Shown here one piece after another: positions 3,255-58,193 of a DNA stretch of 64,000 nucleotides; the stretch's first letter is position 1; each line of letters begins with the position of its first letter. This DNA comes from Candidatus Falkowbacteria bacterium HGW-Falkowbacteria-1 (GTDB lineage Bacteria; Patescibacteriota; Patescibacteriia; Patescibacteriales; UBA12465). A program made the position numbers and the translations under genes. The notes beneath the pieces were generated by a model. That model saw nothing but the letters and a program-made list of their open reading frames with translations. It had not been told where the DNA came from and made no database searches. Where the stretch lies: assembly GCA_002840305.1 (NCBI GenBank), contig PHAI01000001.1, forward strand, positions 112,074 to 176,073, in the 5' to 3' direction.

Positions 3255-4676
3255 ATGCTTAATAAAAAACAAAAAGCTTTTACACTTATTGAATTATTAG
3301 TGGTAATAGCTATTATAGGTATTTTGGCTACTCTAGCGGTTGTAGCTCTACAGCAAGCCAGACAAAATGCTAGAGACGCAAAAAGAGTGGCGGACATGAA
3401 ACAGGTCTCCACTGCTTTAGAATTGTTTTTTAGTGAAAATGGTAGATATCCAACAACTGATGAGTGGAACAGTGGCGCTATAACCTCTTCTAGTACAGGG
3501 GAAATATTTATGTATAGCATTCCTGTTGCCCCAACCCCTGCTGATGGAAATTGCTCTCCCGCCTCTAATACTTATGCCTACATTCCTGTTGATAATGGCA
3601 ATAGTTATGCCATTAATTTTTGTATTGGAAAACAACTTTCAAATCTTAATGACGGAGCCAAGACAATGATCCCTGGTGGTATAGTTGATTATAGTGGCCA
3701 ACTAGAAGAAGAGCCAGGGGGTTGTTTGCCAGAATGTTCTGAGGGTTATATTTGTAATGAAGGAGAATGTGACCTTGTTGCTTGGGTTGAGCAATCACTT
3801 TCTGGTTCAAGAGAATGGTATTCTATAACCTCATCTTCTGATGGTACTAAATTGGCGGCGTGCGCTATGAATGGTTATATTTATACCTCTTCTGACTCAG
3901 GCCAAACTTGGGTGGAGAGAATTTCTGCTGGTTCAAGAAGCTGGGCGGCTATAAGCTCTTCGTCCGACGGAACAAAGCTTGTAGCGGTTAATAATTATTC
4001 TGGTGGAAGTAGTGGCGGGTATATTTATACCTCTTCTGATTCTGGACAGACCTGGGCAGAGAGAACGTCTTCTGGCGAAAGAAGTTGGGAAGGAGTAACC
4101 TCGTCTTCTGACGGAGTAAATTTGGCTGCCGTGGCTTACAATAGTGATTATATTTATACGTCAGATGACTCCGGTGTAACATGGACTGCCAGAACTTCGG
4201 CTGGAGCAAGAGATTGGGACACCATTGATTCTTCTTCTGACGGCTCTATGTTAGCAGCCATCAGTGAATGTGGGTATTTATATACATCTTCTGATTATGG
4301 GGTTACCTGGGTAGAGCAAACTTCTCTTGGGTCAAAATGTTGGAGTTCAGTTGCTTTTTCTTCTGACGGAGAAAGAGCCGTCGCCGTGGCCGCTACTCTT
4401 GATAGTGTTTATGTTTCTTCTGACTTTGCTCAAACGTGGACAGAAAAAGCATCTTCTGGATCAAGAGCTTGGTATTCAGTTTGCTCATCGTCCGATGGAA
4501 GAAAAATATTTTCCGCCGTTTGGGGTGGCTATATTTATGCATCCTATGATTATGGCGAAACATGGGTTGAACAAACTCCTTCTGGCGCAAGAAACTGGGT
4601 TGATATTTCTTGTTCAAACGACGCCAACGAAGTGTCCGCTGCCGTTAACAATGGGTATATATATACCTACAGATAA
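3255..4676 (+). CDS. Type IV pilin-like protein with a C-terminal 7-blade BNR/Asp-box beta-propeller
   Basis: The N-terminus is a prepilin domain ([30 protein letters not shown]). A Cys-rich linker follows, then about 7 repeats each carrying the S-x-D-x-G-x-T-W Asp-box (YIYTSSDSGQTWVE…SSSDG…). Confidence 0.7.
   Translation: MLNKKQKAFTLIELLVVIAIIGILATLAVVALQQARQNARDAKRVADMKQVSTALELFFSENGRYPTTDEWNSGAITSSSTGEIFMYSIPVAPTPADGNCSPASNTYAYIPVDNGNSYAINFCIGKQLSNLNDGAKTMIPGGIVDYSGQLEEEPGGCLPECSEGYICNEGECDLVAWVEQSLSGSREWYSITSSSDGTKLAACAMNGYIYTSSDSGQTWVERISAGSRSWAAISSSSDGTKLVAVNNYSGGSSGGYIYTSSDSGQTWAERTSSGERSWEGVTSSSDGVNLAAVAYNSDYIYTSDDSGVTWTARTSAGARDWDTIDSSSDGSMLAAISECGYLYTSSDYGVTWVEQTSLGSKCWSSVAFSSDGERAVAVAATLDSVYVSSDFAQTWTEKASSGSRAWYSVCSSSDGRKIFSAVWGGYIYASYDYGETWVEQTPSGARNWVDISCSNDANEVSAAVNNGYIYTYR
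3780..4673 (+). repeat. In-frame tandem repeats (~126 nt each, about 7 copies) encoding the BNR propeller blades
   Basis: Nucleotide words recur (tatatttatacctcttctga…, tcttctgacgg…) and the protein shows repeated YxSSDxGxTW…SSSDG blades. Confidence 0.7.
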
Positions 4677-11911: not shown

Positions 11912-12469
11912 ATGCTTAGAAATATATTTGAGTTTATTAAGGTGGTCGTTGTGTCTCTTTTAATAATTTTGCCAATAAGGTTTTTTGTTATTCAGCCGTT
12001 TTATGTTAAAGGGGCTTCTATGGAGCCAAACTTTCATGATCATGAATATCTTATCGTCGATGAAGTTTCTTATCGTTTTAATAGCCCAAGTCGCGGAGAA
12101 GTTATTGTTTTTAGATATCCTTTAAATCCTAAGGAGTATTTTATAAAAAGAGTCATTGCTTTGCCCGGTGAAGAAGTTGAGATTGTTGATGGTGATATTT
12201 ATATTTACAACGAGGAAAATCCTAATGGCTTTTTGTTAAAAGAGTCTTTGTATTTGGATGATAGTGTGGACACGTATAATGTCGAAGAAGGGTCTACGGA
12301 ATTAGATGGTGATGAATATTTTGTTTTAGGAGACAATCGACATGCCTCTAAAGACTCCAGAAGTTTTGGTCCAGTAAATAAAAGCTTTATTGTTGGAAGA
12401 GTTATGTTGAGGGCATGGCCTTTTAGTAGTTTTAGTCTTTTTAAACACATGGATTATTATAATAATTAA
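11912..12469 (+). CDS. lepB: Signal peptidase I
   Basis: A TM helix precedes SM (GASMEPN) and GDNRHASKDSRSFG, the Ser/Lys dyad motifs of S26 peptidases. Confidence 0.85.
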   Translation: MLRNIFEFIKVVVVSLLIILPIRFFVIQPFYVKGASMEPNFHDHEYLIVDEVSYRFNSPSRGEVIVFRYPLNPKEYFIKRVIALPGEEVEIVDGDIYIYNEENPNGFLLKESLYLDDSVDTYNVEEGSTELDGDEYFVLGDNRHASKDSRSFGPVNKSFIVGRVMLRAWPFSSFSLFKHMDYYNN

Positions 12470-14182: not shown

Positions 14183-14230
14183 AAAAAAAAGTAGGCGCGC
14201 AAAATTTTGCGGGCCTACTTTTTTTTTATT
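14183..14230. terminator. Bidirectional Rho-independent terminator between rpsU (+) and the RSH gene (-)
   Basis: An A-run is followed by gtaggcgcgc-aaaatttt-gcgggcctac and then a T-run. Confidence 0.55.
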
Positions 14231-15677
14231 TTTTGAACATTTTTTTGATTTTATAAAGAGGATTTGTCTGGGAATATTGTTTTATTCTTTCTTTGGCGTG
14301 TTTCGTTTTGACAAAATCAAGCCATTCAGCATTGGGTCCTTTTCTGTTTTTTTCAATTATTATTTCTACAATATCTCCGTTTTTTAATTCTTGGCTTAGT
14401 GGTGATATTTTTTCGTTTATTAATGCCCCAGAAGCTTTATTTCCTATGTCCGTGTGAATGGCATAGGCGAAGTCAACCGGAGTTGATTTTTCTGGTAGCT
14501 CTATGACATCTTCCTTGGGGGAAAATACAAATATTCTATCCTGAAATATGTTTGTTTTTATTTCTTGAACAAATTTTTCAGTGTTTTGGTTTTCTTTTTG
14601 TATTTCCAATATTTCTTTTATCCAGCCTGGTTTATCGTAATCTTTGTTTCCACTTTTATAACTCCAATGCGATGCTAGTCCGTACAAAGACTCATCATGC
14701 ATTTCGTGGGTTTTTATTTGAAATTCAGTTGCCTTGCCGTCTGGTCCGATTATAGTTGTGTGCAAGCTTCTGTATCCGTTAGGCTTCGGTACTGCAATAT
14801 AATCTTTAAATCTCCTTGATATCGGCTTCCAAATTGAATGGATTACGCCCAATATTTTATAACAGTCCTCTATGTTGTTTACCACGACTCTTAAAGCGAA
14901 CACGTCGTAGATTTCATCAAACTTCCTATCTTTCCTTTGCATTTTTTGCCAGATACTATAGAGATGTTTAAAGCGGGCAGTTATTTCATAATCAATTTTT
15001 GCTTCTTTTAGCTCTTCTTCCAATCTATTTTTTACTTTATTAAAGAATTGGTTTCTTTCTGCTTTTTTTTCAATTTCGTACTTGTATTCTATTTTTTTAT
15101 ATTCATTTGGGTATAGGTATTTGAAGCAGATGTCCTCCATCTGCCATTTTAATCTCCAGATACCCATAAGTCCTGCTATTGGGGCATATATTTCTAGGGT
15201 TTCTTTTGCAATCCTATGTTGTTTATTTTCTGGTAAGGCATCAAGAGTCTTTAAATTATGTAAACGATCACAGAATTTTATGTATATTATTCTAACATCG
15301 TCGACAACAGCTAAAAACATTTTTCTTAAATTTTCTCTGTATCTTTCTATGCCCCTATATTTTATTTTTCCCAATTTTGTAATTCCGGCTACCAATTTTG
15401 CCACCTCTGATCCGAAGGTTTGCTCTATTTCCTCTATTGTACAAGAGGTGTCCTCCGGTACGTCATGTAATATTCCGGCCACGATAGTGCTTTGGTCTGC
15501 TCTTATTTGGGCAAGATTAAAGGCCGTATGAAGACAATGTTCAATATAGGGCTCTCCACTTTTTCTGCTTTGATCGCCATGTGCTTTTTTGGCAAAATTG
15601 TAGGCCTTTATTATCTCTGAAACATCTATATCTGGGTTAACATCCGTAGCCTTTTTTATTAGTCTTTCAATCGTCAT
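14226..15677 (-). CDS. RelA/SpoT homologue, (p)ppGpp synthetase/hydrolase; short form (HD + synthetase + TGS, no ACT)
   Basis: The HD motif (HDVPEDT) is followed by a RelA_SpoT synthetase region and a TGS-like C-terminus. Confidence 0.85.
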   Translation of the reverse strand: MTIERLIKKATDVNPDIDVSEIIKAYNFAKKAHGDQSRKSGEPYIEHCLHTAFNLAQIRADQSTIVAGILHDVPEDTSCTIEEIEQTFGSEVAKLVAGITKLGKIKYRGIERYRENLRKMFLAVVDDVRIIYIKFCDRLHNLKTLDALPENKQHRIAKETLEIYAPIAGLMGIWRLKWQMEDICFKYLYPNEYKKIEYKYEIEKKAERNQFFNKVKNRLEEELKEAKIDYEITARFKHLYSIWQKMQRKDRKFDEIYDVFALRVVVNNIEDCYKILGVIHSIWKPISRRFKDYIAVPKPNGYRSLHTTIIGPDGKATEFQIKTHEMHDESLYGLASHWSYKSGNKDYDKPGWIKEILEIQKENQNTEKFVQEIKTNIFQDRIFVFSPKEDVIELPEKSTPVDFAYAIHTDIGNKASGALINEKISPLSQELKNGDIVEIIIEKNRKGPNAEWLDFVKTKHAKERIKQYSQTNPLYKIKKMFKK

Positions 15678-15774: not shown

Positions 15775-18279
15775 ATGTTTAATCCTAAAAAAAATCTAAA
15801 ATTGATTATTTTTTTTGTTTTTTTGTTTTCATTGGCGTTTATATTTATTGATAGCAATGCTTTATTGGCTGCTACGACTGACAGTTTGGGAATCAATGCC
15901 GTTGACAGTGAAATAGTATTAGCGAGTACTGACCCGAGGACGGTTGTTGTTAGAATAATCAATATTTTTTTGGGAATTCTTGGTATTGTAGCGGTTTCTT
16001 TAATTATTTTTGCTGGTTTTACTTGGATGACATCTGAGGGTAACGAAGAAAAAGTAAGCAAAGCCAAGGGCATATTAAAGAGCGCTGTGGTTGGATTGAT
16101 TATTGTTTTATCTGCTTGGGGAATAGTTTCTTTCATTTTTAAGGAAATAGCTGGTGGTGGTTCTGAGTCTAGTTTACAAAATAGCAATTCTTCTTTTTTT
16201 CAGAATGGCATTGGGGCGGTCGGGGCTTGTACAGTCGAAAGTGTTTATCCCGAGCCAGGTCAAAAGAGTGTTCCTAGAAATACAATGATAATGATAACCT
16301 TTAAAGAGGAAGTCTCGTCTAGCACGGTACTTGCCAATTCTTCTATATGCTTAGAGCAAGAATTTTCTTTTGAAGATCAAACATGCTCAAATCCTGTTGA
16401 TTTTAGTTTAAGCACTGAGGATAATAAAATATTTGTGATATTTCCTAATTCCTTGCTTGGGAATGAAGATGGCTTTTCTTCTTATGTTGTTTATTTCTCG
16501 AATGATGTTTTAAAGCTTGACGAAAGTGAATCAATATTTGATACTTGCGCCCCTCAATATTTATTGTGGAACTTTGAAGTTAGTAATCAGCTTGATTTGA
16601 CGCCACCAAAAATAGAAAGTATTTTTCCTCAAGCCGACAACCAAAAGGATCAGCTTGAAACAAGTTCTTTATTGGAATATGCAGAGGCTCAAATAAGTGT
16701 TGTTGGTATTCCTAATTATTTCAAACCAGCTGAAATTACTTCTGTAACTAGTGGTGGAGGAACATCCTCTAGCGCCTCTGGCGAGATTAACCCAAATTAT
16801 AACGGAGAATATACTAACTTTACAGTGACTATCCCAACTGGCGCCGACAACAAAGCTCAATTAATGGGAGGTTCAGTTAATTTAGGAGCTTTTGACATTA
16901 TAGAAAATAAGGTTAATTTTACTAATTATTTTTCTCTTGAACTAGAGGAAGGATTTTCTCCTGGCAACTCTTGGAGCGTCCAGGTCAAAAAAATGGTTCC
17001 AGCTGATAAAATAAAAGTTGGTCCATACGAGTATACTTTTATAGATGGCGATACTAATTCTTATAATATAGGAGTTAGGGCTAGTAATATTGGTCAAGCA
17101 GAGCAAATTTATATAGCTTTGAATGATCACCCGAATGTAGATGTTTCTTATTCTTCTAACGTTATAAGCTTGGTGGCTAAAACCGGAGGCTCTTCTGGAA
17201 ATTCAATAGCCCTGCAGTCCTATACTGACAAAATACAAGTCGTAGAATTTAGTGGTGGGGCTGATAGGGTGGATAGAATAATTGTTGGAGATAAAAAGGA
17301 CAAACCAATGAACGCTACTATTCAAATAAATTTTAATGAAGCTATAAACCCATTGACCGTTTCTGGCACTAGTGCAGAACTTGAAGACTATCTTAGGGTT
17401 ATTAATGTGTCAGACGGCGGATCAATAGTAAGCGGAAAATTTGTTATTTCTTCAAATTATAAAACGGTTGAATTTGTGTCAGACTTTAAGTGTGGCGCCA
17501 ATAGTTGTGGTGGCGATGTTTTTTGTTTGCCGGCTAATAGTAATATAAAAGTGGAAGTTGTGGCTGCTGGATTGTTTGATTGTGAGGGGGATGGTATTAA
17601 TTGTGCAAATAAGAGTCCGTTCGTAAATTGTCCAGTTAATATTTGTCAAAATGACGAGGGCAAGAGATACCCTTTGTCTGCAATGCCGGCAAGCGGGGCG
17701 ATGGATTCTTCCGCTAACTCTCTTGATGGAAATGGTGATGGTTATTCTTATGGACCGGCTTCTTATTATTATAAAAACCAAGCTAACCCTTTAACTGGAG
17801 ACAGTTTTTCTTGGTCTTTTTGGATAAATGATAAAATTGATTCAGAGCCGCCAGTTATTTTAGAATTTACTCCAACAACTCCCGCCAACTTATTTAGTTC
17901 AATAGAGATTATTTTTAACAAGCTTATTTCAACTGATAGTCTTAGAACCGGGCAAACCTTAATAGAAAGCGGAGAAGAAAGTGTTGCACATAATAGAATA
18001 AATATATTAAGTGGTCAGTTGGTTGGATATTGGATAAGCTTTGAAAACCAGGATACTAATCCCGTGGACGGGGATCCTGATAGAACGAAGGTCTTTATAA
18101 ATCATGCTAGATTTTTTGAGGGTGCTGGTTATAGGTCTCAAGCTGGTTCGGGGGTTAAAGATATTTATCAAAATTGTTTTAAGCCTAGTGCTAGCATAAA
18201 TTGTAATGCCAACCCCCTAAATCCGTCTTGTTGTGATGGAAGTCCTAGTTCGGGAGCTGACTGTTCGACCGCTGATTAA
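15775..18279 (+). CDS. Large secreted protein: N-terminal TrbC/VirB2-like double-TM pilin domain fused to Big_5-type Ig-like domains and a Cys-rich module
   Basis: Signal/TM, then AGFTWMTSEGNEEKVSKAKGIL, then a second TM, paralogous to the 50787..51158 protein. Downstream are PEPGQKSVPRNT…ITF and TPPKIESIFPQ (Big_5-like), then CGANSCGGDVFC…CEGDGINC…CPVNIC. Confidence 0.6.
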   Translation: MFNPKKNLKLIIFFVFLFSLAFIFIDSNALLAATTDSLGINAVDSEIVLASTDPRTVVVRIINIFLGILGIVAVSLIIFAGFTWMTSEGNEEKVSKAKGILKSAVVGLIIVLSAWGIVSFIFKEIAGGGSESSLQNSNSSFFQNGIGAVGACTVESVYPEPGQKSVPRNTMIMITFKEEVSSSTVLANSSICLEQEFSFEDQTCSNPVDFSLSTEDNKIFVIFPNSLLGNEDGFSSYVVYFSNDVLKLDESESIFDTCAPQYLLWNFEVSNQLDLTPPKIESIFPQADNQKDQLETSSLLEYAEAQISVVGIPNYFKPAEITSVTSGGGTSSSASGEINPNYNGEYTNFTVTIPTGADNKAQLMGGSVNLGAFDIIENKVNFTNYFSLELEEGFSPGNSWSVQVKKMVPADKIKVGPYEYTFIDGDTNSYNIGVRASNIGQAEQIYIALNDHPNVDVSYSSNVISLVAKTGGSSGNSIALQSYTDKIQVVEFSGGADRVDRIIVGDKKDKPMNATIQINFNEAINPLTVSGTSAELEDYLRVINVSDGGSIVSGKFVISSNYKTVEFVSDFKCGANSCGGDVFCLPANSNIKVEVVAAGLFDCEGDGINCANKSPFVNCPVNICQNDEGKRYPLSAMPASGAMDSSANSLDGNGDGYSYGPASYYYKNQANPLTGDSFSWSFWINDKIDSEPPVILEFTPTTPANLFSSIEIIFNKLISTDSLRTGQTLIESGEESVAHNRINILSGQLVGYWISFENQDTNPVDGDPDRTKVFINHARFFEGAGYRSQAGSGVKDIYQNCFKPSASINCNANPLNPSCCDGSPSSGADCSTAD

Positions 18280-25790: not shown

Positions 25791-28241
25791 ATGGGCGCTG
25801 AAAAAAATAAGAAAATTAAAGACAGTAAAGATATTTCAGAAAACAAGATTAAGATTAGTATAATCTCCATGGTGATATTTGTTTTTGGTTTGATAAGCTT
25901 TTTGTCTTTATTTTCTTTGTCTGGGAATTTTGGTCTATTTTTAAGTAAACTTTTATCTTTGGGGTTTGGCTGGGGTAAGTGGTTTTTCCCAGTTTTGCTA
26001 ATAGTTTTGAGTATTGCTTTATACAAAAGAAAGTTATTTTTTTCTAAAAAAATTAATTACCTTGCTTTGTTTTTGTGTTTTTTCCTTTGGCCACTTTTGT
26101 TTCACTTTTTCTTTTCTCAGAATCTAGCTAAATTAAAAGCCTCGGAAGGGCTAGGCGGTGGTTATTTGGGCTTCTATTTTTCTTTGTTTCTAAAAAATAT
26201 TTTAGGTTTTTGGGGTGGGTTAGTTTTAATTTTTGCCTTGTTTCTTTTGTCTTTTATTTTAATGTTTAATATTACCTTGTCGGACTTGGTTGGCTCGAAC
26301 AGCCACTTGATAATGTTTTTTAAGAAGGTATCTTCTTTTTTTGGTAACAAAAAACAAGGAGAAGGGGATGAAGAAACGGGAGAAGAAGAGTATGAAGATG
26401 ATGATGAAGACGATGATGAAGACGATGACGAAGAAATTGATGAAAAAATTTTTAATAAAATTTCTGCAGTCCCAGAAAAGAAAAAAGAAGATGATTTGTT
26501 TTTTGCCAGAAAAAAAATAGGCAGTGACGATATTGAAAAAAATAAAAAGCAAGGAGAGTTAAAAATAAATTGGAAGACTAAAAAAGTTAAGATTGATTTA
26601 CCCCTTGAATTATTAAGTGGTGAAATCGGCAAAGCGACTAGTGGTGATATAAAAAGCAATATTTTGATCATTCAAAGAACTTTGGAAAACTTTGGTATTT
26701 CGGTTGAGATGGGAGAAGTTAATGTTGGGCCAACCGTAACTCAATATACGTTTAAACCGTCAGAGGGAGTCAAACTTTCAAAGATAACAACCCTTAGTAA
26801 TGATTTATCTTTGGCTTTAGCGGCTCATCCGATTAGAATCGAAGCACCGATACCTGGCAAATCTTTGGTTGGGATTGAAGTTCCTAATAAATCTAAAGCA
26901 ATCGTTGGTTTGAGGGAAATTCTAGAAGATAGAGACTTCAAAACTAGAACCAGCAATTTAATGGCCGCCCTAGGTAAAGATGTTTCGGGCAAAAACATTG
27001 TTTATGATATTGCCAAGATGCCTCACTTGCTAGTTGCTGGGGCTACAAATTCGGGGAAATCAGTTTGTCTAAATGCTATTATTATTGGCTTGCTTTATCA
27101 AAATAATCCGGAAGATCTTAGATTTATTATGGTTGACCCTAAAAGAGTGGAACTGCCATCTTATAACAATATTCCTCATCTTTTAACGCCCGTTATAACT
27201 GATGTTAATAAAACGGTTAATGCTTTGAGATGGTGTTTAAATGAAATGGATAGGCGCTATGAAATTTTGAATCAGGCCGGTAAAAAGAACATACAAAGTT
27301 ACAACGAACTAAGTAAAGAAAAAATGCCCTTTATAGTTTTTGTTATTGACGAATTAGCCGATTTGATGATCTCGGCCGCCAAAGAAATAGAGAGCAGTGT
27401 TATTCGTTTAACGCAAATGTCTCGAGCTGTTGGAATCCACTTGATTTTAGCAACTCAAAGACCGAGCGTTGATGTTATAACCGGTTTAATTAAAGCCAAT
27501 ACTCCTTCCAGGATAGCCTTCTCAGTGGCTTCGGTGGTAGATTCGAGAACTATTTTGGATTCATCTGGAGCTGAAAAACTTTTAGGCAAAGGAGATATGC
27601 TTTTTAGTACAGCTGAGTTGTCCAAACCAAAAAGAATACAGGGCGCTTATTTAAGTGATCAAGAAATTTTGTCAATTGTTGGCTATATAAAAGAAAAATA
27701 TGGCACCGCTGATTATTTGGAGGGAATAGTTGAGAGACAAAAGGTCAGCGGTATGGGTGGCGTTGGGCTTGATGGCAATTTTGGTGATGAAGATGAGCTT
27801 TTAGAAGAGGCAAAGGAGGTCATAGTTAACGCCGGCAAAGCATCAACTTCATTGCTTCAAAGAAGGCTCAGAATAGGATACTCTAGAGCTGCTAGCATTT
27901 TAGACATGCTGGAAGATTCAGGAATAATTGGCCCTTCAAACGGTTCTAAGGCTCGTGAAATACTTATATCTAGAGAGCAATTTCAAGGTCCTGCAAGTAA
28001 TGCATTTCCTTCAGCTGGAATTCATAATAAGGCGGAAAGCAAAGCCCCTGATCATTATTTATATGAAGAAGAAGAAAGTCCTTTGATTTTTAGTGACGAT
28101 ACTAGCGAGAAAGTTGAGAACGTAATTGCAGAAGTCGAGGAAGACTCTGACATTGAAGACGGCGAAGTAAAGAATAAAAGTGATATTAAAAAAGAAAAAG
28201 ATAAATCAGATGATGATTTTGGTTTATATTTTTCCAAATAA
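25791..28241 (+). CDS. ftsK: DNA translocase FtsK/SpoIIIE
   Basis: N-terminal TM helices, an acidic low-complexity linker, Walker A (GATNSGKSV) and a winged-helix gamma domain C-terminus. Confidence 0.9.
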   Translation: MGAEKNKKIKDSKDISENKIKISIISMVIFVFGLISFLSLFSLSGNFGLFLSKLLSLGFGWGKWFFPVLLIVLSIALYKRKLFFSKKINYLALFLCFFLWPLLFHFFFSQNLAKLKASEGLGGGYLGFYFSLFLKNILGFWGGLVLIFALFLLSFILMFNITLSDLVGSNSHLIMFFKKVSSFFGNKKQGEGDEETGEEEYEDDDEDDDEDDDEEIDEKIFNKISAVPEKKKEDDLFFARKKIGSDDIEKNKKQGELKINWKTKKVKIDLPLELLSGEIGKATSGDIKSNILIIQRTLENFGISVEMGEVNVGPTVTQYTFKPSEGVKLSKITTLSNDLSLALAAHPIRIEAPIPGKSLVGIEVPNKSKAIVGLREILEDRDFKTRTSNLMAALGKDVSGKNIVYDIAKMPHLLVAGATNSGKSVCLNAIIIGLLYQNNPEDLRFIMVDPKRVELPSYNNIPHLLTPVITDVNKTVNALRWCLNEMDRRYEILNQAGKKNIQSYNELSKEKMPFIVFVIDELADLMISAAKEIESSVIRLTQMSRAVGIHLILATQRPSVDVITGLIKANTPSRIAFSVASVVDSRTILDSSGAEKLLGKGDMLFSTAELSKPKRIQGAYLSDQEILSIVGYIKEKYGTADYLEGIVERQKVSGMGGVGLDGNFGDEDELLEEAKEVIVNAGKASTSLLQRRLRIGYSRAASILDMLEDSGIIGPSNGSKAREILISREQFQGPASNAFPSAGIHNKAESKAPDHYLYEEEESPLIFSDDTSEKVENVIAEVEEDSDIEDGEVKNKSDIKKEKDKSDDDFGLYFSK
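26380..26445 (+). repeat. Short in-frame GAT/GAA tandem repeat encoding EDDDEDDDEDDDEE
   Basis: gatgatgatgaagacgatgatgaagacgatgacgaagaa lies inside ftsK. Confidence 0.6.
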
Positions 28242-29754: not shown

Positions 29755-29847
29755 ATAGATATAATAATATAAGTTTATTTATTATAATTTTATCGTGACT
29801 ATAGCTCGTTTTTTGATGATCTATATTTGCGAACTTTTAAAAAATTT

Positions 29848-30312
29848 ATGACAAAACAAAAGAAAGGTTTTACCTTGATTGAGTTGTTAGTAGTTATTGC
29901 CATTATTGGTATCTTGGCTACTTTAGCTGTTGTAGCATTACAACAAGCTAGAAAGAATGCTAGAGACGCAAAAAGAATTGCAGACGTTCGTCAAATGCAA
30001 ACTGCATTGGAATTGTATTTCAATGATAATCAGTTTTACCCTCCGACAGATGAGATTGCCGCTGGTGGTGAAATCGCTACTAATGGAGTAACTTATATGA
30101 ACATCGTTCCTACAGCCCCTACACCGGCTGATGGTACTTGTGACGCTGGTACAAACGCTTATACTTACACAGGCACCGGAACAGCAGTTGGCGATGCTTG
30201 GGGAAGTTATACTGTTGATTTTTGTTTAGGTGGTCAAACTGGTGGTCTTGCAGCAGGTGAAAAATGTGCTACACCTGGTGGAATCATCGATGATGCTTGT
30301 GAAAATCTATAG
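29848..30312 (+). CDS. Type IV pilin-like protein (prepilin with short leader)
   Basis: MTKQKKG|[28 protein letters not shown] is the prepilin leader and N-terminal helix. The body is paralogous to the first ~150 aa of the 3255..4676 protein. Confidence 0.7.
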
Positions 30313-32655: not shown

Positions 32656-32953
32656 ATTTTTATTTTGTTTTAGGAAGCTTTTAGCGAATTAAAAGAAACA
32701 AAAAAAGACTCGTTTTTAGTTTTTTGAGAAAAAGAGTTTGTCTTTATTTTTATGTAAGATTTTATTTTACTTATTTTGTTTAAAATGCTCATAATTGCTG
32801 AGTTTCCTAATAACCTTTTAATTTTAAATTTAAACTGTTTTTATTATAGCAAAGGCTTTTATTTTTGTAAAGAAGCTTTTTTGGGGCGCTTTTATTTATT
32901 TTATTTTTGTGGTATATTACTGTTGTGTTGTTTATATAATTAATGTTAAACAT

Positions 32954-35134
32954 ATGTTCAAAATGCCTAATTTTAAGCTAAAGCCGTTTATTATTATTTT
33001 TTTTATCGTTGTTATCGCTGTTTCTTTCTTGTTTTTGAAAATACAGCAAAAATATCAGGCTAGAAACTTTGTTGATAGTAATCCTAGCGGTGATAACTCC
33101 CCGGAGGTAGCCAGTCTGAGTCCCAAATATTCTTCAAAAATAAAGAAATTTGCTGATGTTGCCGATTTTAGCTCTTTCATTGAAAAAAATCAGGTTAATT
33201 TTGAAAATAATTATCTAAAAAGATCGGACATGGCCATGGACATAGCCTTTGCTTCGACAGAGTCTCTTGATTCTTCTCTTGCCAACAATGAAATGGTTGG
33301 CGGAACCGATTTTTCTTTAACGAACGTTCAAGTCCAGGGCGTAGACGAGGCCGATATTGTTAAAACTGACGGATCTTATATTTATTATGTCTCTGAAAAA
33401 ACTTTATATATAGTTGAGGCTTACCCAGTAGAAAATAATAAAATTTTAAGTAAATTAGAATTTGATTCTTATTTGTCGGATATTTATATCAAGGGAGACA
33501 GTTTGGTTGTTTTTGGTAACGAAGGCTTTAATTATGGTATGCCGAAAGATAGACTAGCGATGAGCATAGGTATAATGCCACCAATGTCCAACAGTGTTTT
33601 TTTACAGGTTTTTAATATATCAGACAAAACTAATCCTATAAAAGAAAAAGATTTGAAAATGGATGGATCTTATTTTGATTCTCGCTTGATAGGCGATTAC
33701 CTTTATTTCCTTGTTAACAATTATAATTATTATGGTCAAGGATTGCCAAGAGTTTCATACCAAGACAAAGAGTTAAATTTTAATTGTCAGGATGGTTTAA
33801 AATGTGCTCCTTCGAATATCTATTATTTTGATAATTATTATGATAATTTTAATTTGACTAGTGTAACCTCCTTAAATATAACAGATTTTAATAAAGAGCC
33901 AGAAAGTAATTTTTATTTGCTTCCTGCCGGACAAAATCTTTATGTGTCTCAAAATAATATTTATATTACTTACACTAAATATTTAAACGAGTATGAAGTA
34001 GAAACTGATGCTTTGTTGGAGATCATTTATCCTCGTCTATCAGAAAATGACAGAAAAATTGTTGATGAAATAAATTCTGCTTCAGAAAATATTTTGACTT
34101 TAAGTGAAAAAAGAAGCAAAGTTAGAAGGATTTTGGATTTATATATCAATTTTTTAAGTTTAGCCGAAAGAGAAGCCTTGCAGAAAGATTTGGATAATAA
34201 AATAATGGAAAAATATCCTAATATTTTGGAAGAGCTGGAAAAAACTGTTATTCATAAATTGGCTGTTTTTGAAGGTGCCGTTGAACCTATTTTTATGGGC
34301 GAGGTCTCTGGGTCTGTTTTAAATCAGTTTTCGATGGACGAATTTGATGGTTTCTTCCGAATGGCCACAACTAAAAATAGAAGTTGGTCAAGATTCGCAA
34401 GCCTTGAAACTGATTCTTATAACAATGTATATGTGTTAGATTCAAATTTAGAATTAACTGGTGAAATAAAAGGATTGGCCGAAGGCGAAAGGATATATTC
34501 TGTTCGATTCATGGGTGACAAGGCCTATGTTGTAACATTTAAGCAGGTTGATCCATTATTCTCAGTTGATTTAAGAGATCCTTATAATCCGAAAGTTTTA
34601 GGCGAATTAAAGATTCCAGGATTTTCTAACTATCTTCATCCTTATGACAATAATACTTTGATTGGTTTTGGAAAAGAAACTCAAGAAGAGTCAGACGGAA
34701 GAGTTATAACCGGCGGTCTAAAGTTGTCGTTATTTGATGTTTCTTCTGATGAGCCCAAGGAACTTGATTCTTATGTAATCGGTGACCTTGGTAGTGATTC
34801 AATAGCCTTATACGATCATCGAGCCTTTCTCTTTTCGAAAGACAAGAATCTACTTGCTGTTCCGGTTGTCTTAAGAGAGAGCGCGGGCGATAATTCGTGG
34901 GGCGATATTTCTTTTAACGGTTTGTTGGTCTTTAATATTATTGATAACAAATTTGTTTTGAAGGGACAAATAGATCATTTATTGTCGGAAGGAACAAACG
35001 AGGCTTATAATTATGAAGACTCTGTTAAAAGAGGACTCTATATTAAAGAGTATTTTTATAGCTTGTCCGATAATTTTATCAAAATAAACGAGATCAAAGA
35101 TCTAAAGGAAGCCTTGTCTATAAAACTAAAATAA
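32954..35134 (+). CDS. Secreted/membrane-anchored beta-propeller domain protein
   Basis: A signal/TM segment is followed by repeated strand-rich segments (GVDEADIVKTDGSYIYYV, …YIK…) typical of the Beta_propel-type family. Start moved to the first ATG. Confidence 0.45.
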   Translation: MFKMPNFKLKPFIIIFFIVVIAVSFLFLKIQQKYQARNFVDSNPSGDNSPEVASLSPKYSSKIKKFADVADFSSFIEKNQVNFENNYLKRSDMAMDIAFASTESLDSSLANNEMVGGTDFSLTNVQVQGVDEADIVKTDGSYIYYVSEKTLYIVEAYPVENNKILSKLEFDSYLSDIYIKGDSLVVFGNEGFNYGMPKDRLAMSIGIMPPMSNSVFLQVFNISDKTNPIKEKDLKMDGSYFDSRLIGDYLYFLVNNYNYYGQGLPRVSYQDKELNFNCQDGLKCAPSNIYYFDNYYDNFNLTSVTSLNITDFNKEPESNFYLLPAGQNLYVSQNNIYITYTKYLNEYEVETDALLEIIYPRLSENDRKIVDEINSASENILTLSEKRSKVRRILDLYINFLSLAEREALQKDLDNKIMEKYPNILEELEKTVIHKLAVFEGAVEPIFMGEVSGSVLNQFSMDEFDGFFRMATTKNRSWSRFASLETDSYNNVYVLDSNLELTGEIKGLAEGERIYSVRFMGDKAYVVTFKQVDPLFSVDLRDPYNPKVLGELKIPGFSNYLHPYDNNTLIGFGKETQEESDGRVITGGLKLSLFDVSSDEPKELDSYVIGDLGSDSIALYDHRAFLFSKDKNLLAVPVVLRESAGDNSWGDISFNGLLVFNIIDNKFVLKGQIDHLLSEGTNEAYNYEDSVKRGLYIKEYFYSLSDNFIKINEIKDLKEALSIKLK

Positions 35135-48742: not shown

Positions 48743-49924
48743 ATGAAATTTTCTGATCGATTTGTCGGCAAAGCGCAGTGGAATGCTTTTTTTGCCATTA
48801 CTTTCTTGCTTGTTTCAATTGCATTACCTGTTATTTTCTTGTTGTTTGGGCTCAATTTATTAATTGGCCTGGCTATAGGATTAGCTCTTTTTCTTTTTAT
48901 TTCTATCATCGCCCTGTTTAAAGGATATCGTTTCTTTTTTAACAATTATCCTGATTGCAAGGACATGGAACTTCGAAGATTTTATTCTGTTCCTGAAAAG
49001 CATGCTGCTTTGGTGGAAATAAATGGACTTTATCCAGAAAAACCTCTTCATGCCGGTTATTACTTTGTTTTTCCCTTTTTTGAAATTGTTACTTTCTCCC
49101 AAACTATTTTCTTGGGTGATTTTAACGGAGTAATTTTTGATGGAGGGGAAGAAAATAAGATTGATTTTAGTAATGGGATATCCACTCCGATAGAGGCTAT
49201 GTATGTAGCTCATCTTTATTCGGGACCAGAATTAGGATTTGACTTAACGGTGGTGGGTAAGACCAAGGAAGAAATTGAAGAGATAGAGGATGTTGTGTCC
49301 ATATTAGCTTCAATGTTGGATAAGGAAAAAGACGAAATTAGAGCGATGAAGACAGTAACGCGCGAATTGAAAAGTGTTATCCTTGACAACAGTATTAAAA
49401 GGTATGCAAAAGAGGAAAATGCTGACGATAATATTCGTGAAATGTTAATGTCTCTCTTGCGTTTAACTTTGGGCAGTCAAGATTCTAATAAAGCCCGAAA
49501 AGATAAGATTGGCTTGGATAAGTTGAAGGAAGAGGATCGTTGTGTTTTTAATTCCATAATAAAACACTACGGTGTAGATATTCGTTCGATAAATATTTCT
49601 GACATCAAGTTGGCGCCAGAAGAAATAGAAATCAATCGCGCCAAATACCAATCTGGACTTAATGTTGAAATTGCTGAAGACAAGAAAAAAACAGCCATTA
49701 TTGACGCTGAGGCTAAAGCCAAGGTTATGGAATTAGAAGGAGACGGTTTGAAAAATCAGATAAAGAGTATCGTTGATGCTGGTGCTTCCGCCGAGAAAGT
49801 TTTGGAATATTTAACCAAAATGAAACAGTGGGAGTCCATGAAGCCAAGCGACAAATCATTTATCATTGATAATGGCGGAACGATTGCCGGAATACTCGCG
49901 GCTATTGGTAGTGTAAAACCTTAA
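48743..49924 (+). CDS. SPFH/band-7 (stomatin/prohibitin-like) membrane protein
   Basis: TM helices precede VPEKHAALVEINGLY…HAGYYFVFPFFEIV and a coiled-coil AEAKAK region. Confidence 0.55.
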   Translation: MKFSDRFVGKAQWNAFFAITFLLVSIALPVIFLLFGLNLLIGLAIGLALFLFISIIALFKGYRFFFNNYPDCKDMELRRFYSVPEKHAALVEINGLYPEKPLHAGYYFVFPFFEIVTFSQTIFLGDFNGVIFDGGEENKIDFSNGISTPIEAMYVAHLYSGPELGFDLTVVGKTKEEIEEIEDVVSILASMLDKEKDEIRAMKTVTRELKSVILDNSIKRYAKEENADDNIREMLMSLLRLTLGSQDSNKARKDKIGLDKLKEEDRCVFNSIIKHYGVDIRSINISDIKLAPEEIEINRAKYQSGLNVEIAEDKKKTAIIDAEAKAKVMELEGDGLKNQIKSIVDAGASAEKVLEYLTKMKQWESMKPSDKSFIIDNGGTIAGILAAIGSVKP

Positions 49925-49936
49925 TAATTAGAAAAA

Positions 49937-50683
49937 ATGAGCGGAGGAAAGACAAAGGGAATACCTTTACCGAAAAAGATTGAGCAGGTTCAAGATCAAA
50001 ATCAAGAACCGGCACAAAACGATAAGCCAAAATCCAGCCCGAGAGAGCCAAATAAAACACTAATGTCTATTAGAAATGTTTTTTTAGCTTTTCTGATAGG
50101 AGTTGTTCCATTTGTTCTAGTTTGGATCTTCATGTACTTTTTTAATTTTGATTGCCCTGAAAAGCTCAAGTATTATTTAAGTTATGAGGAATGGCGGTTT
50201 TGGACAAGGCTTCTAATTTCTCTATTGCTAACCGGAATAACATTAAAATTGCTTGATTCCGTAGCAGAAGAAAAAAACAAGTTTGCCGATGGAATTTCAA
50301 AGGCATTATTACTGACGCTTATCGTGTTTATCTTGTGGTTCTATGGTATTTCTAAGCCATCAAGAGAGCCACAACTGGCAAGAGAGGCGAGCGAAGTTAG
50401 CTGCTTCAATCCGAATCCCTTTAAGGATTTGATGCCAAAGTATGTTTTTACTCTTAATAGAGGAGAAAAAAGTCTTTGGATCGATTTTCCGGCGGGATAT
50501 AATCTAAAAAATTGGGGGAATTTAAACTACTACAAAATCATCTATAAAGATGGTAGCGTGGTTACCATAGACGGTAATAGAGTGGTAAAACTCCCAGATT
50601 TAAACGAGAGTACTCAAGTTCGCTTTGAGTCTTTGTCGGACGGACAAACAATATATGTTTATCTGACAAGAATCAAAAGATAA
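49937..50683 (+). CDS. Membrane protein of unknown function
   Basis: Three hydrophobic helices and a C-terminal soluble domain. Confidence 0.4.
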   Translation: MSGGKTKGIPLPKKIEQVQDQNQEPAQNDKPKSSPREPNKTLMSIRNVFLAFLIGVVPFVLVWIFMYFFNFDCPEKLKYYLSYEEWRFWTRLLISLLLTGITLKLLDSVAEEKNKFADGISKALLLTLIVFILWFYGISKPSREPQLAREASEVSCFNPNPFKDLMPKYVFTLNRGEKSLWIDFPAGYNLKNWGNLNYYKIIYKDGSVVTIDGNRVVKLPDLNESTQVRFESLSDGQTIYVYLTRIKR

Positions 50684-50786
50684 AAGATAAACTTAAAGGA
50701 CGAAGAAATTCGTCCTTTTTTATTTGCTTTTTTTTGAAAATATTGTTATCATATTAATAGATTTTAAATTTTTTAAACTTTATAAT

Positions 50787-56402: not shown

Positions 56403-58193
56403 ATGAAAAAAACAATACCAGTGACACTTAGTAACTTCGCCTACATCTTGGATGAGGATGCTTATAAAAAATTAAATGAATACATAGAGGGCATAAGAAG
56501 TCACTTTAGTATCACTGATTCAAAAGAAACCACCGATGAGATTATAGGTGACATTGAAAGCAGCATCGCGGAGAAGTTCAGCTCCAAATTAAATGACTCG
56601 AAACAAGTCATAAGCATTGAGGACGTAGTTGAGCTCGTAAAATTAATGGGCTCTGTGGAAGACATTGCTGGTGACAGAGAAGATGTGCGAGATAAGATTG
56701 GCGAAAGTAATTATAATAAAAACGAAGAAAAAACAGAGAAGGGAAAGAAAAAAAGATTATTTAGAGACACAGATGATGTTATTATAGCCGGTGTAGCCTC
56801 TGGACTGGCTAGTTATTTCGGAGTCGATTCCGTTTTTGTTAGGTTGTTATTTTTCGTTTCAATGTTTTTTGGTGGTGCTGGCGTCGTGATTTATGTTATT
56901 TTATGGCTTGTGGTGCCAAAAGCAAAAACTTCAACTCAGAAACTTGAGATGCAAGGCGATTCTGTAACATTAAAACAATTAGAGAAATTAGCCAGAGAAA
57001 AGACCGAAGAATTTAAGAATATTGACAGGGGCAAAATAAAGAATTTTATAAATTCTATATTTGAAATAATTGGCAAGATACTCAAGGCCTTTTGGAAAGT
57101 TTTTATGATTTTTTGGGCCGCACTTGGTTCTTTTATTGGTGGCGTAATCATAGTGGTTTCAACGCTTGCGCTCACCGTTGTCGGTTTTGTTTTAGCTGCT
57201 ATGGTTTTTAACTCAGACTCACCTTTTATAAATATGCCCGAAGGTTTGATTGAAACTATGGGGCGCGGTATTTTGCCATTGGCTGCTTTTTTTGTAGTGT
57301 TCGTGCCAATAATATTCTTAATATTATTAGGGGCATCTCTTGTTGGAAGAAGAAATGTTTTTAATTTACCAACTAGTTTAACGCTAATCGCTATTTGGGT
57401 GACAGCCACCATTGTTTTTGGAGTTGTAGGGATTGATACGATTCCAGAAATAAAGAAACAAATAGAATTATATGATTCAGATATAAACCTTATTACCAAT
57501 GATGTTGAGGTGAGCAGTTTTGATAGAATAAAAGTGGGCGCTGCGTATAAGGCAAATATTACAGCCGGGGATGAATATAAGGTAACCGCGAAGGGAAGAG
57601 AAGATGATTTAGAAAAAATGAACGTGAGTGTGATTGAAGGAGAGCTGATTATTAAAAGAAATCAAAACGAAATCTGTTTGTTTTGTCACAAAGGAAATAA
57701 TGTGACTTTCGAAATAACCACGCCCAGTTTAAACAATCTAGAGGCCAGTGGCGCAAGCAGTGTTGATGTAATTGGTTTTAGCGGAGAGCTTATACAAGCA
57801 AAATTTTCTGGCGCTTCGAAAGGCGTTCTTGATTTAAATTATGGCAAATTCGATATGGATTTAAGTGGGGCCTCAAAATTAATATTAAATACCGCGACTT
57901 CAACCGAATTGAAAATAAAGTTAAGTGGAGCTTCAAACGCAGAAATATCAGGAGTGGCAGATGTATTTAAAGTTTATATGTCTGGTGCATCAACATTAAA
58001 TTCGTATAAACTTAAAACAATGAGTGCCAAGCTTGAGCTCAGTGGGGCTAGCAAGGCGGAACTTAGTGTTTCTAGAGATTTAGATGCAAATGTTTCGGGT
58101 GCTAGCACAGTTTACTATGAGGGAAATCCTGAAATAAATACAAACGAAGAGAGGTCAATCATTTTAAATAAAGAATATTCAGAGCTATATTGA
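56403..58193 (+). CDS. PspC-domain membrane protein with a C-terminal DUF2807-like (putative adhesin/beta-helix) domain
   Basis: The PspC motif is DDVIIAGVASGLASYFGVDSVFVRLLFFV. It is followed by multiple TM helices and repeated GAS…L segments. Confidence 0.65.
   Translation: MKKTIPVTLSNFAYILDEDAYKKLNEYIEGIRSHFSITDSKETTDEIIGDIESSIAEKFSSKLNDSKQVISIEDVVELVKLMGSVEDIAGDREDVRDKIGESNYNKNEEKTEKGKKKRLFRDTDDVIIAGVASGLASYFGVDSVFVRLLFFVSMFFGGAGVVIYVILWLVVPKAKTSTQKLEMQGDSVTLKQLEKLAREKTEEFKNIDRGKIKNFINSIFEIIGKILKAFWKVFMIFWAALGSFIGGVIIVVSTLALTVVGFVLAAMVFNSDSPFINMPEGLIETMGRGILPLAAFFVVFVPIIFLILLGASLVGRRNVFNLPTSLTLIAIWVTATIVFGVVGIDTIPEIKKQIELYDSDINLITNDVEVSSFDRIKVGAAYKANITAGDEYKVTAKGREDDLEKMNVSVIEGELIIKRNQNEICLFCHKGNNVTFEITTPSLNNLEASGASSVDVIGFSGELIQAKFSGASKGVLDLNYGKFDMDLSGASKLILNTATSTELKIKLSGASNAEISGVADVFKVYMSGASTLNSYKLKTMSAKLELSGASKAELSVSRDLDANVSGASTVYYEGNPEINTNEERSIILNKEYSELY

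Follow-up and report, generated by a model that had tools for sequence, protein, structure and literature searches.

A VirB2-like pilin module joined to a large Ig-like and cysteine-rich ectodomain in Candidatus Falkowbacteria and other Patescibacteria

The locus described here raises the question of what a small, two-helix pilin is doing at the start of a protein of 834 amino acids (aa). The gene (CVU82_00595, protein PKM91694.1; 15775..18279, + strand, stop codon included) lies in a 64,000-nucleotide stretch of HGW-Falkowbacteria-1, an ultra-small groundwater bacterium of Candidatus Falkowbacteria (assembly GCA_002840305.1, 302-kb contig PHAI01000001.1, positions 112,074 to 176,073), hereafter the window, in whose numbering all positions are given unless a related locus is named. 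The same window carries a free short VirB2-like pilin of 123 aa (CVU82_00770, PKM91725.1; 50787..51158, +). The initial annotation of the window described the long protein as a signal peptide and two hydrophobic helices of TrbC/VirB2 type followed by a Gly/Ser linker, Ig-like modules and a Cys-dense region, and the short one as its paralogue. Both open reading frames (ORFs) were found at exactly the coordinates it had given, the long one intact, and the layout was borne out by Pfam, AlphaFold2 and alignment of homologues: the protein is a pilin module homologous to the free 123-aa pilin, then a linker, then Ig-like and Cys-rich beta domains.

Membership of both proteins in the pilin family PF18895 (T4SS_pilin) is established at the level of sequence. 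The 834-aa protein scored 46.0 bits over residues 58-121 and the 123-aa protein 39.0 bits, both passing the gathering score of 26.6 bits, and a six-frame local search of the window with hidden Markov models (HMMs) recovered these two pilin modules only. The paralogy of the two proteins was upheld by BLASTP, in which 30% identity over 119 residues (E = 2e-17) spanned the signal peptide, both helices and the loop, as well as by the shared PF18895 match. A Kyte-Doolittle scan found three hydrophobic segments in each protein, one N-terminal and signal-like and two more, in agreement with the predicted topology and with the AlphaFold2 models. The model of the 834-aa protein (mean predicted local distance difference test score, pLDDT, 85.8) shows a helix at residues 4-25, disorder at 26-53, a hairpin at 54-85/91-125, a low-confidence linker at 126-145 and then some 690 residues of confident beta structure, while that of the 123-aa protein (pLDDT 80.6) has its hairpin at 50-81/87-122.

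Within the long gene, the signal peptide region (residues 1-33; 15775..15873, +) has a KK-rich N-terminus, a hydrophobic core at 10-25 and the small residues SNALLAA, and A32 is invariant in an alignment of 68 homologous sequences. The cleavage site of this long protein was placed by eye. In the short protein, a signal peptide (..LVFA|QAD) likewise precedes the two helices, and the chain ends 2-3 residues past helix 2. The pilin module of the long protein (15934..16149, +), defined by the PF18895 match, the AlphaFold2 hairpin, conservation and hhalign, consists of helix 1 (residues 54-85), the loop TSEGNEEKVSKAKG and helix 2 (91-125). The loop motif W-M-T-x-x-G-N-x-x-K is common to the fused module and the free pilins.

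Relationship to VirB2 proper was assessed against nine annotated VirB2/TrbC proteins whose genes lie between virB1 and virB3 on plasmids of mating pair formation (MPF) type MPF-T. The free and fused modules together aligned with this set in hhalign at 85.9% probability (E = 5.2e-6, 64 columns), a score of a kind that hydrophobic helices can inflate. The alignment stayed in register all the way from the 'TDP' motif, where the mature protein begins, to the end of helix 2, with a loop about 7 residues longer in the proteins studied here. Because of this match, and because the literature associates PF18895 genes with virB4 in genomic position, the module is likely homologous to VirB2 proper. The initial annotation would have fallen if its two-helix motif had not scored as TrbC/VirB2-like in profile searches; with PF18895 above threshold and the in-register alignment, though with PF04956 itself below threshold, it is not refuted on this count. 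The NCBIfam model for the pilin-like conjugal transfer protein Mbov_0395 of a Mycoplasma integrative and conjugative element stayed below its cut-off of 40 bits in both proteins, at 35.2 and 33.7. Precomputed database annotation assigns PF04956 to the 123-aa protein, which UniRef names 'Conjugal transfer protein TrbC'. The family assignment itself is not new, since VirB2-like pilins of Patescibacteria have been described and some homologues already bear the label 'pilin' or 'Ig-like domain-containing protein' from the Prokaryotic Genome Annotation Pipeline (PGAP). Literature searches on pilin-Ig fusions, VirB2 fusions and Falkowbacteria pilins, on the other hand, gave no description of a VirB2-type pilin with a large ectodomain; it is the architecture that appears to be new, in a family already known.

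An architecture of this kind could in principle be produced by two genes joined through an assembly or sequencing error, an outcome that the initial annotation had named as fatal to its interpretation. No point in its favour was found. Over 100 protein clusters of 820-950 aa among the homologues, from independent assemblies, combine PF18895 with PF13205, relatives that keep the full length are present in 515 species (one genome scanned per GTDB species), all Patescibacteria by title or gene content, and the 68-sequence alignment has invariant residues on either side of the linker. Since the architecture is continuous in independent assemblies, the long ORF is not a fusion created by error, and we give that explanation practically no weight. 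Many of the metagenome-assembled genome records with this gene are titled 'uncultured Gammaproteobacteria bacterium' (loci L005, L008, L011, L012 and others), one Bacillota and one Saccharimonadales; these titles are probably mislabelled, because the synteny matches that of the Falkowbacteria window.

Downstream of the pilin module, a flexible Gly/Ser-rich linker (residues 126-145; 16150..16209, +; pLDDT 36-53) leads into the first Ig-like domain (146-272; 16210..16590, +), which is beta-rich with pLDDT >90. The proposed Big_5-type modules proved sound: PF13205 (Big_5) matched the whole protein at 52.5 bits (gathering score 23.6 bits) in two stretches, the best at 151-249, and residues 146-275 scanned alone gave 36.9 bits. 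Segment-wise scans placed a clear Big_5 match at 146-250 and weaker Big_5-like ones at about 509-565 and 686-757. The middle beta-rich region (273-500; 16591..17274, +) matched nothing in Pfam and varies more than the rest of the ectodomain. It is followed by a second Big_5-like domain (501-690; 17275..17844, +; weak match, E = 0.016), into which the Cys-dense module is inserted (573-624; 17491..17646, +), and by a C-terminal beta domain (691-834; 17845..18276, +) with a faint Big_5 match (E = 0.061) and five near-invariant cysteines (801, 810, 819, 820, 830). The Cys-dense module is real, its seven cysteines (C573, 578, 584, 603, 610, 619, 624) being invariant in 68/68 homologues, as are C801, C819, C820 and C830; with C810, kept in 67/68, twelve cysteines in the segments 573-624 and 801-830 are invariant or nearly so.

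Such an ectodomain invites a reading in which the protein has nothing to do with a type IV secretion system (T4SS): a static surface protein whose hairpin is a two-helix anchor, perhaps oligomerising, and whose Ig-like rod serves as a coat resembling a surface layer (S-layer), as a spacer or as an adhesin outside any pilus. A Foldseek search with the full model returned only multi-Ig surface and adhesion proteins (SbsC S-layer, DSCAM, cadherins, LdtMt2 Ig domains), a result that also fits the adhesive role favoured below. In favour of the static reading, the S-layer protein SbsC stood at the top of these matches, and UniRef names the 834-aa protein 'SbsA Ig-like domain-containing protein'. The ectodomain is moreover conserved over its whole length, cysteines included, and so bulky a tail is atypical for pilins of PF18895. 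The SbsC match (PDB 4uic, E = 1.6e-7), however, has a template modelling score (TM-score) of only 0.11 and is a generic multi-Ig alignment, and Pfam scans of the 834-aa protein detected no S-layer homology (SLH) or other cell-wall-binding domain.

The pattern of conservation also bears on this alternative. Conservation is highest in the pilin module, where the majority-residue frequency is 0.71; the ectodomain has 0.46-0.63 and the linker 0.33. That a passive anchor should be the best conserved region, and should retain the cytoplasmic loop motif known from free pilins, is not to be expected; for these two reasons the module appears to be more than that. The linker, by contrast, is among the two least conserved segments of the protein, at 20% mean identity to the query. 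Its disorder and poor conservation would suit a further possibility, that the ectodomain is cut free at the Gly/Ser linker and works as a factor that is secreted or associated with the wall, the hairpin entering the ordinary pool of pilins. C-terminal processing of TrbC/VirB2 pilins is established, which would speak for such a cut, and a signal peptidase I gene stands in the conserved block upstream. Against it, the linker shows no conserved cleavage motif, that lepB gene is probably the housekeeping copy, and no gene for a protease is tied specifically to the locus. We consider cleavage at the linker very improbable.

A second gene in related genomes bears on the modular character of the protein. 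In some 60 of 83 related loci, the orthologue is followed directly by a gene for a protein of 1,400-2,400 aa with the same N-terminal module; in locus L020 (12723..18533), for example, the protein has a PF18895 match of 39.6 bits, TIG and Big_5 domains and 120 cysteines, and locus L002 (12734..19408) is similar. BLASTP similarity between the first and second fused proteins was confined to residues 3-127, the ectodomains being unrelated, so that one carrier occurs with interchangeable ectodomains and the design is modular. Identity is 55% between the fused modules of the two families, but only 36% between these modules and free pilins. Across loci L002-L083, the modules of a tandem pair were 68% identical within a genome as against 55% between genomes, and the partner module from the same genome was closer than the median orthologue in 58/60 loci. 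This likeness within genomes points to gene conversion or to co-adaptation to a shared partner, and co-evolution with the module of a neighbouring giant gene is not what a passive anchor would be expected to show. The clade of the window lacks the second gene and has recA directly after the long gene.

The surroundings of the long gene are conserved as well. The window is AT-rich (33% G+C) and carries housekeeping genes typical of a reduced Patescibacterial genome, among them the conserved block ruvB-queA-lepB-hisS-rpsU-relA/spoT(-)-pilin gene. The divergent relA/spoT-family neighbour (14226..15677, -; Pfam HD_4, RelA_SpoT and TGS) was directly upstream of the orthologue in 73/83 related loci. 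Placement in so deeply conserved a housekeeping block, far from T4SS genes, fits a static surface protein well. All points considered, we regard the static reading as the main rival, a substantial possibility if a doubtful one. The same strict synteny speaks against origin from a mobile element, and a phage origin is not supported, since comparison with PHROGs gave nothing meaningful. Scans for promoters and terminators flanking the long gene performed no better than on shuffled sequence. The lepB gene for signal peptidase I (11912..12469, +), probably a housekeeping copy, lies three genes upstream of the fused pilin and is in the block in 59/83 loci; maturation of VirB2/TrbC requires cleavage of the signal-peptidase type. 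About 8 kilobases (kb) upstream of one orthologue (locus L001, 536..2465), an N_methyl pilin-like gene has as its neighbours a bAvd gene and a reverse transcriptase gene that resemble a diversity-generating retroelement.

Around the short pilin, a SPFH protein, a membrane protein, the pilin, tRNA-Tyr, mutM, rpmG, an AI-2E transporter and rubrerythrin form a neighbourhood that is fixed in relatives. The two genes directly upstream (48743..50683, +) encode a SPFH/Band_7 protein of 393 aa and a 248-aa membrane protein without a Pfam family; the same pair precedes the pilin in relative L084, and two unannotated genes of similar size do so in L085. A functional link between these genes and the short pilin is a possible one, put forward as a candidate only. 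A terminator-like hairpin with a 10-pair stem and a T-run (50695..50718) separates the membrane-protein gene from the pilin, and therefore ATG 50787 is favoured over TTG 50724 as the start of the latter. Two single ORFs, P0121 (820 aa) and P0124 (606 aa), contain 8 and 7 tandem pilin modules, respectively; barring frameshift artefacts, they may be either fused pilin arrays or polyproteins.

The initial annotation reported that VirB4/VirD4-type ATPase genes are missing from the window, and suggested a role other than DNA transfer. The absence itself stands, as described below, and carries little functional weight. The assembly studied here (GCA_002840305.1; HGW-Falkowbacteria-1, class ABY1) is listed as VirB4 'Yes' in Table S1 of a phylum-wide survey (PMC12102498). 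In the same study, Falkowbacteria GW2011_GWC2_38_22 has VirB4, TrsD, VirB3 and four VirB2-like genes, all four of which are marked 'VirB4 proximity: No' (PMC12102498). Given the listed VirB4 and the distance of the relative's VirB2-like genes from virB4, the lack of an ATPase gene in the window is uninformative. The only FtsK/VirD4-like ATPase of the window (25791..28241) was considered as a T4SS coupling protein and rejected, as it has the full set of canonical FtsK domains (4TM, alpha, motor and gamma). Although the other T4SS parts of GW2011_GWC2_38_22 are listed in Table S3 of PMC12102498, its fused-pilin orthologue KKQ61274.1 is omitted, and the fused class seems to have escaped that screen.

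Taken together, the reading that we favour is one in which the module is a carrier recognised by a T4SS and the protein is a minor or tip subunit of a T4SS pilus that mediates contact. From the predicted topology, Sec export and signal-peptide cleavage would leave helix 1 running from outside to inside and helix 2 returning to the outside, with the conserved loop WMTSxGNEEK facing the cytoplasm. With a membrane-spanning hairpin whose loop is cytoplasmic, the disulfide-rich ectodomain is expected on the cell surface of this monoderm. The pilin module would then be recognised by the machinery that handles free pilins, presumably an MPF-FATA-like T4SS with VirB4 whose genes lie elsewhere in the genome. 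In a pilus that consists mainly of free pilins, the protein may be displayed as a minor subunit, probably tip-located or thinly spread over the shaft, where the Ig-like rod could act as the adhesive 'effector' for cell-cell contact. We put the carrier and pilus-subunit role at a little under an even chance. The role suggested at the outset, a surface filament or adhesin for cell-cell contact instead of DNA transfer, is a plausible candidate and agrees with published views of Patescibacterial T4SSs.

Several observations weigh against a place in a T4SS pilus. PF04956 (TrbC), with a gathering score of 27.9 bits, was reached by neither protein (17.1 bits for the 834-aa and 26.7 bits for the 123-aa protein), so that of the two families the initial annotation had singled out for an HMM search, PF13205 passed and PF04956 did not. 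Short pilins alone aligned weakly with VirB2 in hhalign (probability 12.9%, E = 2e-3). Comparison of the pilin-module profile with all PDB chains yielded only spurious repeat matches to designed 'Pizza' propellers, and that of the full-length profile no match. A Foldseek search of PDB with the short-pilin model gave nothing at E <= 1e-3, and the archaeal conjugation pilus 8dfu ranked 47th (E = 4.1); such a search is non-specific for the short pilin, because helical hairpins are too simple to discriminate. HMM and Pfam scans detected no other gene of a T4SS, VirB4 and VirD4 included, in the 64-kb window, and no T4SS genes were seen within 10 kb of the long gene or the short paralogue in relatives with annotated or matched neighbours. 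Both pilin genes are singletons about 33 kb apart among housekeeping genes, outside any tandem array. The membrane-distal C-terminal half is conserved and not hypervariable, unlike the usual signature of a host-range adhesin. The tail of 709 residues past helix 2, far beyond the family norm of about 3, may sterically bar incorporation into a filament. To our knowledge, a T4SS pilus has never been visualised in any Patescibacterium.

The length of the tail also bears on whether the protein could itself be the major pilin and form a heavily decorated homopolymer. Among 1.84 billion representative proteins, 31,056 are related to the short pilin at E <= 1e-3, and in the 150 nearest representatives the tail past helix 2 has a median of 3 aa and a maximum of 158 aa. 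The module of the long protein is complete and highly conserved, as a major pilin would require, and because the pilin termini point outward in solved VirB2-family pili, a C-terminal tail is topologically allowed. Yet by geometric estimate a 700-residue domain on every subunit would crowd the five-start VirB2-type lattice, and free short pilins that end after helix 2 are present in the same genome and are the norm of the family. A major pilin is therefore very improbable.

Comparison with known systems helps to place the protein. Its closest counterparts are the VirB2-like pilins of Patescibacteria, which occur as arrays of 2-11 small genes and are essential in the T4SS of Southlakia epibionticum (PMC10633639, PMC12102498). 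They share the PF18895 match above threshold, the signal peptide, the hairpin, the WMT-x-x-GN loop and a VirB4-positive host (PMC12102498), whereas the described members are small and lack the 709-aa tail, the long gene is a singleton among housekeeping genes and neither in an array nor by virB4, and the fused modules form a subfamily of their own. The layout is that of canonical VirB2/TrbC/TraA pilins (Agrobacterium VirB2, RP4 TrbC), in which a long signal peptide is followed by a mature N-terminus of the 'TDP...' kind and two hydrophobic helices with a short loop. The 834-aa protein differs from them in its sub-threshold score, longer loop, monoderm host, very large C-terminal ectodomain and lack of adjacent virB1, virB3 and virB4, and with such a tail the head-to-tail cyclisation of VirB2 and TrbC would be impossible for it.

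In general design, the nearest precedent, and a proven one, is that of modular type IV pilins such as PilB of Streptococcus sanguinis, with many examples in the candidate phyla radiation (CPR) (PMC8179133). There too a small N-terminal carrier (IPR012902) is followed by a linker and by a bulky effector predicted to act in adhesion at the filament tip. Those pilins, however, belong to an unrelated filament system and have a class III signal peptide (N_methyl), a single alpha-1 helix, a prepilin peptidase and machines of PilB/PilC type. The 834-aa protein has a two-helix VirB2-type module and no match to N_methyl (PF07963), and is thus not a member of that class. Type IV pilin genes with N_methyl (FTLIELLVV; PF07963) do occur in the window at 3255..4676 (+) and 29827..30312 (+), and the former, fused to a BNR/Asp-box beta-propeller, is a classical modular type IV pilin. 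With this fusion and that of the 834-aa protein, the same genome grafts bulky modules onto both kinds of pilin.

The role proposed here, contact with the target cell on behalf of a T4SS, is also that of the surface adhesins VirB5, at the Gram-negative pilus tip, and PrgB, LPXTG-anchored in Gram-positive bacteria. The 834-aa protein is unlike these in being anchored by a pilin module, and not by non-covalent tip binding or a sortase; Pfam and NCBIfam scans gave no match to the VirB5 or PrgB families, and PrgB-like adhesins have not been found in Patescibacteria (PMC12102498). SbsA and SbsC of Geobacillus resemble the ectodomain in their chains of Ig-like beta-sandwich domains, in Big_5 matches and, for SbsC, in the Foldseek ranking. 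They are set apart from the 834-aa protein by its lack of an SLH or secondary cell wall polymer (SCWP)-binding region, its membrane anchorage by the pilin hairpin and the generic nature of the structural match. Two further genes of the window encode large envelope proteins, one in which a PspC domain is joined to a DUF2807 'adhesin head' domain (56403..58193, +) and a 741-aa PF09826 beta-propeller protein (32909..35134, +).

A large part of the diversity of uncultured bacteria belongs to Patescibacteria, which are thought to live attached to host cells. A broader proposal is that the fused family of 830-950 aa and its partner of about 2,000 aa are the first modular VirB2 pilins, extracted by the T4SS via the module and displayed on the tip or shaft of the pilus, and that they are the missing adhesins coupling the relaxase-less T4SS to the host in ABY1/Falkowbacteria; at present we judge this rather unlikely. 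The fused family is present in more than 500 species, its module co-evolves between tandem genes, and as a class it was apparently overlooked by T4SS surveys based on HMM coverage. The fusion challenges the textbook picture of VirB2 pilins as always tiny, and carries the modular-pilin principle over from type IV pili to the pili of type IV secretion. The Patescibacterial T4SS is essential in the one species tested, and a pilin with a swappable ectodomain is a concrete candidate for host contact. If the broader proposal is true, T4SS pili would independently have taken up the module-grafting strategy that is known from type IV pili.

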